A stretch of 10,473 nt of DNA from Giardia intestinalis (GCA_000002435.2 AACB03000009.1), one strand, 5' to 3'. Shown: positions 2,151 through 10,473, counted from the first letter of the stretch. Notes: generated by a model from the letters alone, not told the origin. A program made the numbers and translations.

Positions 2151-2191
2151 GGGCCGACCGGGCCGCGGGGGCGACGCGCGGGGCGCGCGAG
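2151..2191 (-). other. ITS1, about 41 nt.
   Basis: This lies between the SSU 3' terminus (…GTAGGTGAACCTGCGGATGGATCC) and the inferred 5.8S start. Confidence 0.55.
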
Positions 2192-3640
2192 GGATCCATC
2201 CGCAGGTTCACCTACGGATACCTTGTTACGACTTCTCCTTCCTCCAGGCGCGGGGGCTCGCGGCCCTTCGCGCGTCCGGGGCGCTCGCCGCCGCGCCCAG
2301 TCGGTAGGAGCGACGGGCGGTGTGTACAAGGGGCAGGGACGCGTCCGGCGCGCGGTGGGGGCGGGCGCCTACAAGACATTCCTGGTGCGCGGGGGCGTTC
2401 CAGCCCGCGGTCCCGGCCACGGCGGGGGCTCCGCGCGTCCTCGCGGGCGCCGGCTGGCCCCGCCAGTGTAGCGCGCGTGCGGCCCAGGGCGTCTGAGGGC
2501 ATCACAGACCTGCTATCGCCCCGCCGTCCTCCCGCTCGCGCGGGCCGTCCCGCGGCGCCCGCGGCCGGGGTCTCGCTCGTTGTCGCAATGGAGCAGACGG
2601 CTCGCGCCACGGGCTGGGAGCGGCCATGCACCACCGCCCGCGCGATCGCGAAAGCGCGCCCGGCTGTCGGTCCTCCGCGCGTCCGGGCCTGGTGAGGTGC
2701 GCGCGTTGAGTCAGATTGAGCCGCAGACTCCACGTCTGGTGGTACCCCTCCGTCAATGCCTTCAAGTTTCAGCCTTGCGGCCATACTCCCCCCAGAGCCC
2801 GGAGCCTCCCGGTTTCCCTGGGCGGCCGGCGGGACGCGCGCGCCGGCCGCGGGGCGGCACCGTTTACGGCCGGGAATACGGTGGTGTCTGATCGCCTTCT
2901 AGCCCCCGGCCTTCGCCCTTGATTGACAGAGGCGGTCTTGGCAGGCGCCTGCGCGGCCGGCGGTCTCGGCGGGATCATCCTGTTTCACCCGTCCCCGGCC
3001 GGTACCGGTGCCCCCGCCCGCTCTCCTCGGGGCTGCCGCGGCGCGCCGCGCCCGCTGCGCGGTCCCACGCGGCGGGTCCAACGGGCCTGCCTGGAGCGCT
3101 CCCGTTTCCTCGTGGCGGCGGGGGGCCAACTACGGGCGTTTCAACTGCAGCAGCGCCGCGCGACGCTCGCCGAGCTGGAATTACCGCGGCTGCTGGCACC
3201 AGACCTTGCCCTCGGCTCCGCGGCGGGGGCTGTGGGCCCGCCTCGCTCGCGCGCTCCCCGTCGCTGCCTCGCGCGCCGCGCATTGGGCAAGTTCCGCGCC
3301 TGCTGCCGTCCTTGGATGTGCGGGCCGTCTCGCAGGCCCGCTCTCCGGAGTCGAACCCTGATTCTCCGCCAGGCGTCGGGCCCTCGGCGCGCCGCGACCG
3401 CGCCGACCGGGTGATGCCCCGGAAGCCCGGGCGGGCCGTCGCTGCGTCACGCTGCTCGCCCGCGGGCGCCCGCCCTTGCGCGCACGTCTTGGCGCCGGGT
3501 TGCCAGCGGTGTCCGGCTAGCAGGGACCGCCGCGGGGGGTGCAACCGTTGTCCTGAGCCGTCCGCCGCGTCCCGGGTGAGCGGGCATGCATGGCTTCGTC
3601 CTTGGGGAGAGCGTCGCGCTCCGGCAGGATCGACCGGATG
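2192..3640 (-). rRNA. Small-subunit (18S-type) rRNA, about 1449 nt. It is unusually short and lacks most eukaryotic expansion segments.
   Basis: The reverse complement of 3559-3640 is CATCCGGTCGATCCTGCCGGAGCGCGACGCTCTCCCCAAGGACGAAGCCATGCATGCCCGCTCACCCGGG, the SSU 5' end, equivalent to TACCTGGTTGATCCTGCCAG…AAGCCATGCATG. GGTGCCAGCAGCCGCGGTAATTC is present as a reverse complement at 3177-3199. GGCTGAAACTTGAAGGCATTGACGG is present as a reverse complement near 2745-2770. GTACACACCGCCCGTCGCTCCTACC is present as a reverse complement near 2296-2320. The 3' end is GTAGGTGAACCTGCGGATGGATCC, present as a reverse complement at 2192-2215. Confidence 0.92.
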
Positions 3641-3699
3641 GCCGGGCGCGGGCGCCGCGGGCCGGGCGCCTCCCTGCGCGGGGGCCGCCGCCTGGCACG

Positions 3700-3740
3700 G
3701 GGGCCGCCCCCTCCGTGCCCATGCCGTGTCGGGGGTCCCC
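3700..3740 (-). promoter_or_regulatory. Candidate RNA polymerase I initiator or core promoter for the SSU-5.8S-LSU precursor. The minus strand reads …GGCACTATAGGGGGGACCCC…, about 80-90 nt upstream of the mature SSU 5' end.
   Basis: A TATAGGG-type motif lies on the transcribed strand inside an AT-richer patch immediately 5' of the SSU. It resembles the (T)ATATAGGG-type Pol I start-site consensus seen in many plants and protists. This is inference only. Confidence 0.3.
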
Positions 3741-3800
3741 CCTATAGTGCCGGGCGGAGGCCGCCCCCCACAGCCCGGCCCGGGTCCGCCTGCACCACAC
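3722..3800. repeat. IGS subrepeat copy A (CCTATAGTGCC…CTGCACCACACTTTTTTGGATTCCCTTGGGG).
   Basis: An imperfect direct repeat of 3871-3952. The shared blocks are CCTATA(TA)GTGC, GCCGCCCCC(C)ACA, CTGCACCACA(C/T)TTTTT(T)G(G/A)A(T/A)TCCCTTGGGG. Confidence 0.7.
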
Positions 3801-3864
3801 TTTTTTGGATTCCCTTGGGGCCCTCTGCCCCCCTCCAAAAAACCGGCCCTCGCGAGATAAAGCA

Positions 3865-3892
3865 CCTTGTCCTATATAGTGCGTGACAGAAG
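3865..3892 (-). promoter_or_regulatory. Second TATAGG-type motif. The minus strand reads CGCACTATATAGGACAAGG, about 235 nt upstream of the SSU. It is a candidate spacer or duplicated promoter.
   Basis: A repeat-borne copy of the same motif class as at 3721-3730. Confidence 0.2.
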
Positions 3893-3952
3893 CCGCCCCC
3901 ACACACCCCCTGGAGTCCCCCTGCACCACATTTTTTTGAAATCCCTTGGGGG
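3871..3952. repeat. IGS subrepeat copy B (CCTATATAGTGCG…CTGCACCACATTTTTTTGAAATCCCTTGGGGG).
   Basis: A direct repeat of 3722-3800 about 149 bp downstream. The spurious ORF products PGSACTTLFWIPLG and PGVPLHHIFLKSLGG mirror the DNA similarity. Confidence 0.7.
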
Positions 3953-4850
3953 CGTCCGGGGGGCCGGGGGGCCGGTCCGCGGGGAGCGCCGGGGAGCCCG
4001 GGCGGACCCTGCAGGACTGCATATCACGGCAAACCCTCCTGTGCGGACCGCGTGTCCCGGGCTCCCTGCCGGTCGGGAGATCCGCGCCCCTCGTTCTCCG
4101 TCCACCGTGCCCCGGGGAGGCCCTTGACTGCAAAACGATCGAATTGGAGGCTGATTGTGCATCCGGGCGCTCTGGGGGCCCTCTCCGGGGAGACCGCCCG
4201 AAACGGCTTCTCGCGGGGATCTCAGCAGCCGTGGCTATATACGGTCCGTCTCTAACCTATATGATTGCTGGCAGCGGGAGGGCACTGCGTGGGGGGCGGC
4301 CCCCCGGAAGGGCGCGGTCCGAGGAGGGGCCCCCGACCGGCCCTGGACCGACTGGGGCAGCCCCGGGTGCTGTGCGTGCGCCTGGCTGCAGCGGGGCCAC
4401 GGGGCGCAGGAGGCCGCAGGAGAGACCGGAGTGTTTACTGGCCCGGGGGATCGGCTGCTCTGGGCCGTCCGGGGGTCCTTCCGCGCTCTCCCCGCGGTCC
4501 CCCGGTCTCCTGCACCGGGCCTCCCCAGCGCCCGTCCCCGCACGTGGGCGTGTCTCCCGGTCGTGCGTGGCCTGCTGGAGGCGCTGGGCCTCCCTGCCGC
4601 CCTCTCTGTCTGGATCCCCCGGGCCGCCTCCCCCGGGCCCCCTGCGGTCCTGCGCCGCCCCCCTGCGCACACGGGGTCTCTCTGTGCAAGGCAGACCCGG
4701 TGGTGGGCGTGCACTGCCCCCTGGCCACCCCTTGGGGCACCCTGCACTCCCTCAATCTTCTCTTTCCGCGCTCTGCCTGTCTGTCTGCCCCGCACCCCCC
4801 CAGAGCAAGTGGGCCGCGCGCCCCGCCCCGCGCTCTGCAGGCGCGTCCCT

Positions 4851-5105
4851 CAGGCGATCGCAGGGCTCTGCGCCGTACAGGAGCGCCGCGCCGGGTGGTC
4901 TCCCCGGGCGGGGGCCGCTCGGCGACGGGGCACGGGGCTGGGGCGCGCGGCCGGGCGGGGCGCGAGGCGGGGTGCGCGCTTAGAGGCGGTCAGCGCAGGG
5001 CCCCCGGGCGCGGCGGCGCGGCGCTGCCCGGCCGGGCAACCGCGGGGCTGGCGGCCCGCGGCGGGCGTTCCTCTCGTACTGGCCCGCCGTGCTCTGGCCC
5101 CGGGG

Positions 5106-5158
<53 letters not shown>

Positions 5159-5208
5159 CCTTGAACGGGTGAACAATCCGACGCTTCCGCGCCGGTGCGC
5201 GCGGACGG

Positions 5209-5241
<33 letters not shown>

Positions 5242-5259
5242 GCGTCGCTGCGGGCGCTC

Positions 5260-5298
<39 letters not shown>

Positions 5299-5740
5299 CC
5301 ACCTCCGCGCCCGCGGCCGGGGCGGCGAAGGATCGGTAGGCCCCGCTTTCGCGGCCCGCGCCGGCACGGGGGGCGCGGGTCGGGCGGGCTTGTGCCCTTC
5401 TGCTCCGCGGGAGGTCTCCGTCCTCGCTGAGCCCGCCGTGGGACGCCTGCGGTCCGGTGTAGCAGGCGCGCCGCCCCAGCCGAACTCCCCGCCCGGGCGG
5501 GTCCCCGCGCGACCGGGTGAGCGGGGCGGCGGCGGCCGTCAGGGTGTCTCAGGGGCGCGGCCTCCCCTGTGCGCTGCGCCGGCCGCCCCGCCCCACAGGC
5601 CCGGGCTGGAGTCAAGCTCAAAAGGGTCTTCTTGCCCCGCTGGCCGGCCCTCGCCCGTTCCCGAGGCTGGAGGCTCGCGGAGGCGCGGCTCGGGACAGTG
5701 GGATCCTCGTTGGTCCATTCATGCACGTCGGAAATTGCCC

Positions 5741-5792
<52 letters not shown>

Positions 5793-7508
5793 AGGGCTTC
5801 GGCGGATCGCTTCACGGTGACGGTCGTGGCACTGGGCAGAAATCACGTCGCGCCAGCGCCGGGTGCGGCCCTCGCGACGCTGTGTTTCTAGTAAACAGTC
5901 GGGATCCCCGCGTCCGTTCCAGTTCTGACCCGGCGCGCCGTCAGAGCCACTCCTTTTCCCGAGGTTACGGAGCCGGCTTGCCGACTTCCCTGAGCCGCGT
6001 TCGCTCCCGCGCTAGAGGCTGCTGACCCCGGAGTCCTGCTGCGGTCGGTACGGCGCGCGGCCGGCGCCCCCCGGCTTTTCAGGGGCGGCCGGGGACGCGC
6101 GGGGTCCGCCCCCGGGCCCCCCTCTCCGCGCAAGGCGTCCGGGGGCTGCGGGGCGTTCGCGGGCCGGGGCGCCGCCCGCCGCGGTCCCCGTGCGCGTCGC
6201 CGGGGGGCGGGCGTCTCCGCGGGGGCCGCGCCTGCCGGAGTCTCCGCCGGCTCCCCGTTCGACGGGCGGGCACGCCCCTTCCCGGTCTTCACCCGCCGCT
6301 TAGGCCCGAGTCACCCGCGGCCAGATGCAGGCGCCGCGGAACCCGTCTCCCCCTCAGTCCTCCGGGGCGCGGAGTAGCGGCTACTGCTGCCGAGATCTGC
6401 ACCAGAGGCCGGTCCGGCGGGGCCTGCGCGCCGCCTTCGCCCCCGGGGCCTCTGCGGCCTCCTACCCGCCGCGCGCGGCGGCCGGGCGCGGGTCCGGGGC
6501 TCCGGCGCGCTCCATTTTCCGGGCCGGCCGATTCGGCTGGTGGGTTGTTACACACTCCCTGGAGGATGCCGACTTCTGGGGCCACCTTCCAGCTGTCGGG
6601 ACCGGCCGACGCCGTTCCGCGGGCCCCGGCGGCGCACCCTGGCCCGGCGTCCGGATCGTCCCGCCTCGCCCGTCCTGCTTACCAGGAGGGGCCCACGCGC
6701 CGCCCGCATTCGCCCGCCCCGCCCAGGCCAGCGGCGGGGCGGCGCGGCCCTTCGGAGTTTGGGGGGCGGGCGAGGGGCAGGCCCCCCGCTCCCGCCGGCC
6801 AGCGCTCTACGGGCCGCAACTGCGGGGCGGCGGCTGTCCTGGGAGACATTTCGGAGGCAACCAGCTACCAGGCGGTTCGATGAGTCTTTCGCCCCCATGC
6901 CCGGCTCCGACGAGCGATCTGCGCGTCAGCACCGCGGCGGGCCTCCACCAGGCTTTCGCCCGGCCTCGCCCTCGCCGGGCATAGATCACCGCCTTTCGGG
7001 CCCACGCGCCGCGGCTCGGCCCGCGCACGCCCGCAGGGGCGCGGCGGGCCCGGGGCGTCTCGCGCTCGCTCCGCCGCGGGGGCTCCCTCGGGCTCGCCGC
7101 GGCGCGTGGCTCCTCGGTCCGTGTTTCGAGACGGGGCCGGCGGGCCGGCGGCCGGCCGGGTTCAGGTCTTTTGAGCGGCCGCAGGGCGTCCTTTTCACCG
7201 TTCGCTCGCGCTACTTGGTCCGCTATCGGTCCCGGGGCGTATTTAGCCTTGGAAGGGCCGCGCCTCCCTTCGCGCTGCACGCTCAAGCAGCGCTACTCGC
7301 CGCGCAGGCCCGGCGGCCGCCGTACGGGGCTTGCACCCTCTCGGGCGGGGCCCTCGGGCCCCCTCGCGGCGGGCCTGCGCCTGCGCCCCACAGCGCGCCT
7401 TCGGGGCGGGCTCCTCCCGCGTCGCTCGCCGCTACGGGGAATCCCGGTTGGTTTCTCCTCCGGGGCGTACTGATATGCTTAAGTTCCGCCCGTCGCCCCC
7501 GCCGCCTC
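4851..7508 (-). rRNA. Large-subunit (28S-like) rRNA, complete copy of about 2.6-2.7 kb. The 3' end, at the lower coordinate, is approximate.
   Basis: The sarcin-ricin loop AGTACGAGAGGAAC is present as a reverse complement at 5067-5080. CGTGAGCTGGGTTTAGACCGTCGTGAGACAGGTTAGTTTTACCC is present as a reverse complement at 5103-5146. GGATAACTGGCTTGTGGC is present as a reverse complement near 5268-5286. The 5' motifs are at 7461-7488, which is copy 1 plus 5563. Confidence 0.85.
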
Positions 7509-7713: not shown

Positions 7714-7754
7714 GGGCCGACCGGGCCGCGGGGGCGACGCGCGGGGCGCGCGAG
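7714..7754 (-). other. ITS1, copy 2.
   Basis: Identical to 2151-2191 at offset 5563. Confidence 0.55.
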
Positions 7755-9203
7755 GGATCCATCCGCAGGTTCACCTACGGATACCTTGTTACGACTTCTC
7801 CTTCCTCCAGGCGCGGGGGCTCGCGGCCCTTCGCGCGTCCGGGGCGCTCGCCGCCGCGCCCAGTCGGTAGGAGCGACGGGCGGTGTGTACAAGGGGCAGG
7901 GACGCGTCCGGCGCGCGGTGGGGGCGGGCGCCTACAAGACATTCCTGGTGCGCGGGGGCGTTCCAGCCCGCGGTCCCGGCCACGGCGGGGGCTCCGCGCG
8001 TCCTCGCGGGCGCCGGCTGGCCCCGCCAGTGTAGCGCGCGTGCGGCCCAGGGCGTCTGAGGGCATCACAGACCTGCTATCGCCCCGCCGTCCTCCCGCTC
8101 GCGCGGGCCGTCCCGCGGCGCCCGCGGCCGGGGTCTCGCTCGTTGTCGCAATGGAGCAGACGGCTCGCGCCACGGGCTGGGAGCGGCCATGCACCACCGC
8201 CCGCGCGATCGCGAAAGCGCGCCCGGCTGTCGGTCCTCCGCGCGTCCGGGCCTGGTGAGGTGCGCGCGTTGAGTCAGATTGAGCCGCAGACTCCACGTCT
8301 GGTGGTACCCCTCCGTCAATGCCTTCAAGTTTCAGCCTTGCGGCCATACTCCCCCCAGAGCCCGGAGCCTCCCGGTTTCCCTGGGCGGCCGGCGGGACGC
8401 GCGCGCCGGCCGCGGGGCGGCACCGTTTACGGCCGGGAATACGGTGGTGTCTGATCGCCTTCTAGCCCCCGGCCTTCGCCCTTGATTGACAGAGGCGGTC
8501 TTGGCAGGCGCCTGCGCGGCCGGCGGTCTCGGCGGGATCATCCTGTTTCACCCGTCCCCGGCCGGTACCGGTGCCCCCGCCCGCTCTCCTCGGGGCTGCC
8601 GCGGCGCGCCGCGCCCGCTGCGCGGTCCCACGCGGCGGGTCCAACGGGCCTGCCTGGAGCGCTCCCGTTTCCTCGTGGCGGCGGGGGGCCAACTACGGGC
8701 GTTTCAACTGCAGCAGCGCCGCGCGACGCTCGCCGAGCTGGAATTACCGCGGCTGCTGGCACCAGACCTTGCCCTCGGCTCCGCGGCGGGGGCTGTGGGC
8801 CCGCCTCGCTCGCGCGCTCCCCGTCGCTGCCTCGCGCGCCGCGCATTGGGCAAGTTCCGCGCCTGCTGCCGTCCTTGGATGTGCGGGCCGTCTCGCAGGC
8901 CCGCTCTCCGGAGTCGAACCCTGATTCTCCGCCAGGCGTCGGGCCCTCGGCGCGCCGCGACCGCGCCGACCGGGTGATGCCCCGGAAGCCCGGGCGGGCC
9001 GTCGCTGCGTCACGCTGCTCGCCCGCGGGCGCCCGCCCTTGCGCGCACGTCTTGGCGCCGGGTTGCCAGCGGTGTCCGGCTAGCAGGGACCGCCGCGGGG
9101 GGTGCAACCGTTGTCCTGAGCCGTCCGCCGCGTCCCGGGTGAGCGGGCATGCATGGCTTCGTCCTTGGGGAGAGCGTCGCGCTCCGGCAGGATCGACCGG
9201 ATG
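7755..9203 (-). rRNA. Small-subunit (18S-type) rRNA, copy 2.
   Basis: Identical to 2192-3640 at offset 5563. The 5' end …GGATCGACCGGATG ends at 9203. Confidence 0.92.
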
Positions 9204-10473
9204 GCCGGGCGCGGGCGCCGCGGGCCGGGCGCCTCCCTGCGCGGGGGCCGCCGCCTGGCACGGGGGCCGCCCCCTCCGTGCCCATGCCGTGTCGGGGGTC
9301 CCCCCTATAGTGCCGGGCGGAGGCCGCCCCCCACAGCCCGGCCCGGGTCCGCCTGCACCACACTTTTTTGGATTCCCTTGGGGCCCTCTGCCCCCCTCCA
9401 AAAAACCGGCCCTCGCGAGATAAAGCACCTTGTCCTATATAGTGCGTGACAGAAGCCGCCCCCCACACACCCCCTGGAGTCCCCCTGCACCACATTTTTT
9501 TGAAATCCCTTGGGGGCGTCCGGGGGGCCGGGGGGCCGGTCCGCGGGGAGCGCCGGGGAGCCCGGGCGGACCCTGCAGGACTGCATATCACGGCAAACCC
9601 TCCTGTGCGGACCGCGTGTCCCGGGCTCCCTGCCGGTCGGGAGATCCGCGCCCCTCGTTCTCCGTCCACCGTGCCCCGGGGAGGCCCTTGACTGCAAAAC
9701 GATCGAATTGGAGGCTGACTGTGCATCCGGGCGCTCTGGGGGCCCTCTCCGGGGAGACCGCCCGAAACGGCTTCTCGCGGGGATCTCAGCAGCCGTGGCT
9801 ATATACGGTCCGTCTCTAACCTATATGATTGCTGGCAGCGGGAGGGCACTGCGTGGGGGGCGGCCCCCCGGAAGGGCGCGGTCCGAGGAGGGGCCCCCGA
9901 CCGGCCCTGGACCGACTGGGGCAGCCCCGGGTGCTGTGCGTGCGCCTGGCTGCAGCGGGGCCACGGGGGCGCAGGAGGCCGCAGGAGAGACCGGAGTGTT
10001 TACTGGCCCGGGGGATCGGCTGCTCTGGGCCGTCCGGGGGTCCTTCCGCGCTCTCCCCGCGGTCCCCCGGTCTCCTGCACCGGGCCTCCCCAGCGCCCGT
10101 CCCCGCACGTGGGCGTGTCTCCCGGTCGTGCGTGGCCTGCTGGAGGCGCTGGGCCTCCCTGCCGCCCTCTCTGTCTGGATCCCCCGGGCCGCCTCCCCCG
10201 GGCCCCCTGCGGTCCTGCGCCGCCCCCCTGCGCACACGGGCGTCTCTCTGTGCAAGGCAGACCCGGTGGTGGGCGTGCACTGCCCCCTGGCCACCCCTTG
10301 GGGCACCCTGCACTCCCTCAATCTTCTCTTTCCGCGCTCTGCCTGTCTGTCTGCCCCGCACCCCCCCAGAGCAAGTGGGCCGCGCGCCCCGCCCCGCGCT
10401 CTGCAGGCGCGTCCCTCAGGCGATCGCAGGGCTCTGCGCCGTACAGGAGCGCCGCGCCGGGTGGTCTCCCCGG
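9204..10473 (-). other. Intergenic spacer, copy 2, truncated by the window end. It contains the same subrepeats (9285-9363 and 9434-9516) and the same TATAGG motifs as copy 1.
   Basis: It aligns with 3641-4907 with three 1-bp insertions and one substitution. Confidence 0.6.

Follow-up and report, generated by a model that had tools for sequence, protein, structure and literature searches.

In Xenopus, Drosophila and mouse, near-copies of the ribosomal RNA (rRNA) gene promoter are located in subrepeats of the intergenic spacer (IGS) upstream of the promoter proper, often with a promoter-proximal terminator after them. In most plants, the initiation site of RNA polymerase I (Pol I) is marked by a TATA that stands immediately 5' of the initiating A and is followed by a G-run (PMC4043768). 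Moreover, plants possess duplicated genic and spacer Pol I promoters, each of which carries TATATAGGGG (PMC6589552), and a CAAAAAA-type motif is present at -78 to -111 in the Pol I promoters of oaks, beech and Brassicaceae (PMC4043768). For Giardia duodenalis, a survey from 2022 listed the promoter of the ribosomal DNA (rDNA) as unidentified and recognised only TBP and Rrn3, but no Pol I TBP-associated factors (TAFs) (PMC9705513). The same survey cites an in-silico prediction of TBP and TAF binding sequences for the rDNA spacer of Giardia (Lagunas-Rangel et al. 2021, Acta Trop 217:105872), and among the papers open to our full-text search none with a mapped Giardia rRNA start site was retrieved. 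Here, we have analysed a stretch of 10,473 nucleotides from Giardia intestinalis (GCA_000002435.2 AACB03000009.1), which will be called the window. In a preliminary description of this DNA, four TATAG motifs on the minus strand of the spacer upstream of the small subunit (SSU) rRNA gene had been put forward as candidate Pol I initiators and spacer promoters. We consider it probable, with some reserve, that the motif closest to the SSU, designated M1, functions as initiator or core element in the gene promoter from which Pol I transcribes the G. duodenalis rDNA, that the 5' external transcribed spacer (ETS) is about 100 nt long and that the second motif, M2, is a duplicated promoter copy.

The window consists of tandemly arranged rDNA on the minus strand, in which Rfam models locate two SSU genes (2189-3640 and 7752-9203) and two large subunit (LSU) genes (1-1930, cut by the window edge, and 4955-7493). 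The rDNA unit has a period of 5563/5564 nt and a GC content of about 75%, the SSU comprises merely 1452 nt and the IGS (3641-4954) has a length of 1314 nt. The G. duodenalis typing primers RH11 (CATCCGGTCGATCCTGCC, at the extreme 5' end of the SSU), GiarF and RH4 match the SSU exactly (primers e.g. in PMC10663360). The two spacer copies of the window (3641-4954 and 9204-10473) differ by three one-base indels, two of which are located in homopolymer runs, and by one A/G substitution, which reflect either true heterogeneity within the array or sequencing errors. All motifs are identical in both copies. Nucleotides 22-24 of the SSU read GCG and GCTCA follows further on, which we take to be the signature of assemblage A. 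The sequence thus identifies the rDNA of the window as that of G. duodenalis, assemblage A-type.

The four motifs, M1 to M4, contain every TATA tetramer of the 5563-nt unit. TATAGG occurs three times per unit (0.04-0.12 expected), TATAG four times (0.09-0.40 expected) and CACTATAKRGG twice (about 0.05 expected); the observed numbers of TATAGG and TATAG were reached by none of 1000 dinucleotide-preserving shuffles. Since M1 and M2 represent a single element in duplicate, the number of independent occurrences is about three rather than four. All four strings named in the preliminary description are indeed present on the minus strand, but they had been placed inexactly. M1 had been assigned to 3717-3729, an interval that reads ACACGGCATGGGC, and its true site at 3749-3737 is about 20 nt away, while M2, M3 and M4 were displaced by 1, 3 and 2 nt, respectively. 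The proposed distance of 80-90 nt between M1 and the SSU has to be corrected as well: the T of the TATA is located 106 nt from the SSU start (3640) and the A preceding the G-run at -103. As a whole, M1 occupies the positions -109 to -97 relative to the first SSU base 3640, which places it in the IGS, on the rRNA-sense strand and in a plausible range for a 5' ETS. By contrast, it was correctly recognised that the motifs lie in AT-richer patches (GC content of 0.65 versus 0.75-0.82) and that the first two motifs occupy equivalent positions in two subrepeats. M1 and M2 are in register within two subrepeat copies of the spacer (plus strand 3743-3825 and 3875-3956), which follow each other with a period of about 131 nt and share about 80% identity.

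The subrepeats contain a second conserved element. On the minus strand, upstream boxes with the pattern CCCCARGG..CAAAAAA..GTGGTGCAG are present at 3790-3820 and 3921-3952. For comparison, rDNA contigs were gathered from public assemblies via the spurious open reading frames (ORFs) of the GC-rich rDNA, by a protein search followed by contig look-up. This yielded A-type variants with 0-2 SSU differences (L003, L004, L007-L010, L012 and L013) and B-type spacers with the SSU signature CCGGAATCCGACG...GACACAAGCC...GCGCA (L016, L017 and L018). All seven subrepeat copies from A-type and B-type rDNA carry CCCCARGG...CAAAAAA..GTGGT..A...GGAC, with the CAAAAAA located 62 nt 5' of the TATA, and the GC-rich interval of about 40 nt between box and TATA varies freely among them. 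The B-type spacers possess a third subrepeat with CCGCACTATATAGGGGGAGG at -366, in which the 131-nt period and the boxes are retained. As a separate observation, at -285 and -416 from the SSU in the B-type contigs L018 and L016 the box sequence GTGGTATAG replaces GTGGTGCAG, which creates an additional TATAG within the upstream box.

Between A-type and B-type rDNA, no alignment is possible over the distal two-thirds of the spacer; the proximal 330 nt retain their layout, and both lineages have ACTATA(TA)GG at -106/-105 and at -236/-235. Among the A-type variants, neither M1 nor M2 varies, and the ACTATA-GGGG of M1 is invariant across six spacer lineages including B-type. Of the invariant blocks in the proximal spacer, the longest comprises 27 nt around M2 (GTCACGCACTATATAGGACAAGGTGCT, 3887-3861). 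The other invariant runs of at least 8 nt in the six spacers correspond to the two boxes (in the proximal box, 3814-3801 and 3798-3790 between A-type and B-type), to CCCCCGAC directly after M1 and to blocks between M1 and the SSU, of which 3713-3694, 3691-3681 and 3657-3641 are invariant in A-type and B-type rDNA. In the A-type L003/L008 lineage, M3 is changed to TCACATAGG and has lost the TATA, while M4 is changed to GGTGTATAGCC with a weakened TATA; no counterparts of M3 and M4 were found in the B-type spacers. This footprint, in which M1, M2 and the boxes are invariant but M3 and M4 are not, points to constraint on the former and not on the latter. As would be expected of a promoter element, M1 is conserved while the surrounding spacer diverges.

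Assemblies that are probably derived from RNA suggest a transcript 5' end next to M1. In the contigs L005 (SRR3568102) and L006 (SRR3568103), an adapter is joined to the rDNA at 3734, and in L011 (SRR24056658) it is joined at 3731. In all three contigs, which stem from two accession series, the 5' end consists of 27 nt of adapter, GAGTTCAGACGTGTGCTCTTCCGATCT, which we take to be the end of the Illumina TruSeq adapter. The contigs contain no IGS upstream of 3734 and continue from the boundary through the ETS, which is identical to the window, and the whole SSU into the internal transcribed spacer 1 (ITS1) and the 5.8S rRNA. The DNA-type contigs L008-L010 (5620 nt) close the entire rDNA unit. 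The adapter boundary is located 9-12 nt 3' of A3743 in CACTATA-GGGGGG, and the three runs agree within 3 nt. Randomly sheared DNA would not end at one place in three runs, which argues for an abundant RNA whose coverage ends there. Libraries of cDNA usually lose about the first 10 nt of an RNA. Given the boundary at 3734/3731, the RNA would thus actually start somewhere from 3734 to about 3755, a range that brackets TATAGGGGGG (3746-3737), and the boundary may mark the initiation site. The single adapter type was also considered as proof of a stranded RNA library and was rejected because single-end read-through gives the identical picture. Among the assemblies recovered, neither a contig boundary nor other RNA evidence of transcript starts was found at M2; L012 and L013 begin upstream of M2, lack adapters and look DNA-derived. 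The folding energies of the putative 5' ETS, of the first 24 nt and of the interval between M2 and the T-run were no better than those of shuffled sequences.

M1 is thus a well-supported candidate because A-type and B-type rDNA share it with a constant spacing to the SSU (-106/-105) and because three RNA-type contigs start 9-12 nt downstream of its A/G-run junction. In the reading that we favour, transcription would start at or a few bases from the A/G-run junction (A3743/G3742), and the polymerase acting at M1 would be Pol I. The promoter would be a module of about 90 nt, consisting of the CCCCARGG..CAAAAAA..GTGGTGCAG box, about 40 nt of variable GC-rich DNA and ACTATA(TA)GG, in which the isolated TATA could serve as a melting or recognition point in DNA with a GC content of about 80%. 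The module would be duplicated at a period of 131 nt, with M2 and the third B-type copy as upstream duplicates of the spacer-promoter kind. The conserved anatomy supports M2 as a duplicated, spacer-promoter-like copy. As to its putative activity, M2 probably recruits the same factors as M1 and may give rise to short spacer transcripts ending at a run of six T residues between the two motifs. The proposal that all four motifs are initiator or spacer-promoter candidates therefore survives for M1 and, at the level of the sequence, for M2. M3 and M4 are not supported; they look like lineage-specific AT-rich remnants with no conserved role and should be dropped. The very short 5' ETS that had been envisaged is indeed short, at about 100 nt instead of 80-90 nt, and this length matches the extreme compaction of the rDNA unit.

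Several points weigh against this assignment. As M1 and M2 have a palindromic core, CTATAG, TATAG can be read on both strands, so that strand polarity rests on the G-run and the position and not on TATAG; the strand-specific reading of the motifs in the preliminary description is accordingly weaker than claimed. The TBP of Giardia (gTBP) has been reported to have no preference for TATA or AT-rich DNA and to favour single-stranded G-tracts and flexible DNA (PMC12209930), so that recognition of the TATA by TBP cannot be assumed. The gTBP motif [AC]NNGGGGNN[AC] (PMC12209930) is matched by ATAGGGGGGA in A-type and by ATAGGGGACC in B-type rDNA, but with about one match per 200 nt in the unit this carries little weight. 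Moreover, the spacer comparison is shallow because it spans solely A-type and B-type G. duodenalis, that is, one species complex. Two contigs with Giardia-like rDNA of about 70% GC, L014 (SRR10605906) and L015 (SRR25169929), presumably derive from other Giardia species, the 3' kilobase of their SSU being 94.8% and 83.4% identical to the window, respectively; both contigs end at the universal 530 loop, short of the spacer, and therefore allow no deeper spacer comparison. The assignment of SRR3568102, SRR3568103 and SRR24056658 to RNA-seq is itself deduced from contig content and adapter fusion. Finally, the sharp boundary could also be a primary processing site or a stop of the reverse transcriptase (RT) at the GGGGGGACCCCC hairpin or the G-run, and RNA from further upstream could be present in a separate contig beyond the reach of the ORF-based retrieval.

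Some of these points lend themselves to other readings of the locus. The primary Pol I start could be located at M2 (A3873) or farther upstream, with 3731-3734 as an early 5'-ETS processing site and M1 as a mere repeat twin. In eukaryotes, the 5' ETS is commonly cleaved early and the fragment upstream of the cut quickly degraded, and steady-state RNA assemblies cannot separate a transcription start from a fast cleavage site. M2 is also conserved more strictly than M1 and is part of the 27-nt block, the longest invariant one in this part of the spacer, which would suit M2 as the true start and cleavage near 3735. However, we regard this possibility as unlikely: the contigs of all three runs carry the adapter and show no upstream continuation, which puts transcripts across 3735-3750 below assembly abundance, and a conserved T6 run is present between M2 and M1. 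Moreover, the boundary is not arbitrary but follows an initiator-like motif by 9-12 nt, and in a rearranged rDNA copy (L017, see below) the homology starts at the same G-run.

The conserved blocks might also be non-transcriptional, for instance as fork-barrier, recombination or chromatin sites (such as sites of sirtuin-dependent silencing in a subtelomeric array), or be kept alike by concerted evolution, with the boundary as an RT or assembly artefact at a G6/C5 hairpin. It is true that rDNA units homogenise within a genome, that folding predicts a GGGGGGACCCCC stem at the 5' end and that the motif is exactly where the rearranged copy L017 breaks, as a recombination hotspot might. Concerted evolution cannot explain conservation between A-type and B-type rDNA amid flanks that have diverged past alignment, a stem of 4 bp offers little obstacle to RT and is read through in DNA-type contigs, and the three runs agree within 3 nt; we thus consider this explanation very unlikely. 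Highly improbable, in our view, is the idea that the AT-rich islands with the TATA motifs and CAAAAAA boxes are initiators of the RNA polymerase II (Pol II) type, which drive sterile or bidirectional spacer transcripts unrelated to the pre-rRNA start. Giardia mRNAs have an AT-rich initiator followed by ATG, a layout that CAAAAAAATG in the distal box resembles. Short AT-rich initiators of Giardia also give bidirectional sterile transcription (PMC12209930), and CTATAG is palindromic. However, no conserved ORF follows, and no AT-rich initiator a few bases before the start codon of such an ORF was found in the spacer; the proximal copy and some of the B-type copies lack the ATG. Furthermore, the RNA-type contigs beside M1 run in the sense direction into the SSU, and the spacing to the SSU is fixed between A-type and B-type rDNA. 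Taken together, M1 as the Pol I initiator with M2 as its upstream duplicate remains the reading that we prefer. The coordinates of the features are given in Table 1.

Table 1 Features of the Giardia duodenalis rDNA spacer upstream of the SSU (positions in the window)
Feature	Position	Strand	Remark
M1 CACTATAGGGGGG	3749..3737	minus	Candidate Pol I gene-promoter initiator; predicted +1 A3743 or G3742
M2 CACTATATAGGAC	3881..3869	minus	Duplicated promoter-like copy, candidate spacer promoter; analogous A is A3873
M3 TCATATAGGTTAG	4263..4251	minus	Unsupported as a conserved element
M4 CGTATATAGCCAC	4243..4231	minus	Weakly conserved, unsupported
Proximal 131-nt subrepeat	3737..3825	minus	Box CCCCAAGGGAATCCAAAAAAGTGTGGTGCAGG, then GC-rich variable stretch, then M1
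Distal 131-nt subrepeat	3869..3956	minus	Box CCCCAAGGGATTTCAAAAAAATGTGGTGCAGG, then variable stretch, then M2
Proximal upstream box CCCCAAGGGAATCCAAAAAAGTGTGGTGCAG	3790..3820	minus	CAAAAAA run begins 62 nt 5' of the M1 TATA
Inter-repeat segment	3837..3856	minus	Palindrome CTCGCGAG (3856-3849) and T6 run (3842-3837), about 100 nt 5' of M1
5' boundary of RNA-type assemblies	3731..3734	minus	Illumina adapter fused to rDNA
Putative 5' ETS	3641..3743	minus	About 103 nt if +1 is A3743

The segment between the two subrepeats is conserved in its own way. The 8-nt palindrome at 3849-3856 is kept via paired changes, with CTCGCGAG in the window, CTCATGAG in L008 and CCCGCGGG in the B-type contig L018, and it is imperfect in L007 and L012. 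The paired changes suggest a binding site for a dimeric factor. The T6 run, which is located 30 nt 3' of M2, is conserved between A-type and B-type rDNA and interrupted in L007, and it may act as a promoter-proximal stop for spacer or read-through transcripts. The segment could be a factor site or a promoter-proximal terminator. A bacterial promoter and terminator scan, which is not expected to apply to Giardia, gave no hits in the spacer, hairpin-type terminators included. The ORFs of the spacer are artefacts of composition, and an Rfam scan (E<=1) revealed no RNA family in it. In the middle of the spacer, AGTAAAC is present on the minus strand at 4428-4434; it is kept in the A-type variants, the region being unalignable in B-type spacers, and it exactly fits AGTRAAY, which we take to be the consensus of the Giardia polyadenylation signal.

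Other contigs contain rDNA in unusual contexts. L017, a metagenome scaffold, carries a partial B-type rDNA copy (559-1348 of the reverse complement) with junctions at 55/56, 558/559 and about 1337. The stretch homologous to rDNA opens precisely with the G-run downstream of the TATA position, between GACCTCCT and GGGGACCCCCCGACC, and ends at about SSU nt 689. On the 5' side, the copy is preceded by 503 nt of unrelated sequence with a GC content of 63% and, before that, by 55 nt of SSU (nt 708-762). On the other side, an Ank-repeat gene follows directly, and kinase and permease genes are located nearby. The arrangement could be suggestive of an RNA-mediated copy from the 5' end of a transcript, of a recombination breakpoint, of a rearrangement at the array edge or of an assembly chimera. 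An origin of the TAGGG in M1 from telomere healing was dismissed because the retained rDNA is on the wrong side of the motif. Three further contigs (P0025, P0026 and P0027; ENA contigs of 2.2-2.5 kb) contain ORFs with a VSP domain (PF03302), the C-terminal part of which, about 36 amino acids, is identical to the antisense translation of a conserved segment of the SSU; they are either VSP genes abutting SSU fragments or chimeras of metagenome assembly. Two metagenome-contig matches to the SSU 5' end turned out to be due to chance and contain no rRNA. When genome contigs were scanned with a permissive box-gap-ACTATA pattern, 120 chance matches in AT-rich prokaryotes and no Giardia-like ones were obtained.

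The module proposed here spans about 190 bp (3641-3830), its conserved blocks are defined and its +1 is predicted at 3743/3742, so that the question of the Giardia rDNA promoter becomes directly testable, the separable parts being ACTATAGG, the CAAAAAA box and the T6 run. If the assignment is true, the module would provide a strong Pol I promoter for Giardia expression tools. The kind of element is itself ordinary. The TBP/TAF sites predicted in 2021, as far as they can be gathered from their citation in the survey (PMC9705513), are probably the same TATA sites of the spacer; the present analysis adds to that account the subrepeat module, the footprint across A-type and B-type rDNA and the boundary of the RNA-type contigs. 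Like the spacer promoters of animals, the locus has upstream duplicates of its putative gene promoter in IGS subrepeats (two copies in A-type and three in B-type rDNA) and a conserved T6 run between M2 and M1. In contrast to them, the putative extra promoter copies number just one (A-type) or two (B-type). A further comparison is with the Pol II initiators of Giardia, which are of the AATTAAAAA type. M1 resembles these initiators, a general description of which is available (PMC12209930), in that transcription would begin at a short AT-rich island set in a compact GC-rich context, and its palindromic core would permit bidirectionality. M1 differs from them because no ORF is located downstream, the transcript would be pre-rRNA and the combination of TATAG, G-run and box is unlike the AATTAAAAA type.

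A close resemblance exists to the TATATA(A/G)GGGG Pol I promoters of plants. In both cases, the rRNA-sense strand of the IGS has a TATA before a purine and a G-run within an AT-richer island, and the complete module recurs farther upstream with the motif included. The plant-like start block that had been noticed earlier is borne out for M1, which matches the TATA-A(+1)-G-run initiator (PMC4043768; PMC6589552). The plant arrangement of a TATA followed by A or G and at least four G residues is found in M1 as TATA-GGGGGG in A-type and TATA-GGGG in B-type rDNA; the third B-type copy reads TATATA-GGGGG, and M2 (TATATAGGAC) has GG only and does not fully share this feature. A CAAAAAA-type motif is present tens of bases upstream in both groups, at -78 to -111 in plants and 62 nt upstream of the TATA in Giardia. 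In contrast to plants, Giardia has no identifiable Pol I-specific TAFs of SL1 or the core factor (PMC9705513). Moreover, its module of about 90 nt, the 131-nt period, the 5' ETS of about 100 nt and the IGS of 1.3 kb are all tiny, and its start is deduced. It is distinctly unlikely, though worth mentioning, that the locus represents a TATA-(G)n initiator of minimal and possibly ancestral form, in which the AT island melts and the divergent gTBP, together with Rrn3-Pol I, binds the TATAGGGG sense strand thus exposed, and which Giardia would share with plants and other eukaryotes by ancient origin. For a motif of about 10 nt and over so deep a divergence, the likeness is better described as a functional resemblance that may have arisen by convergence, and homology cannot be claimed. 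Nevertheless, the likeness to the plant TATATAGGGG initiator, combined with the duplication of the spacer-promoter kind, makes the Giardia spacer of comparative interest for the evolution of Pol I promoters.

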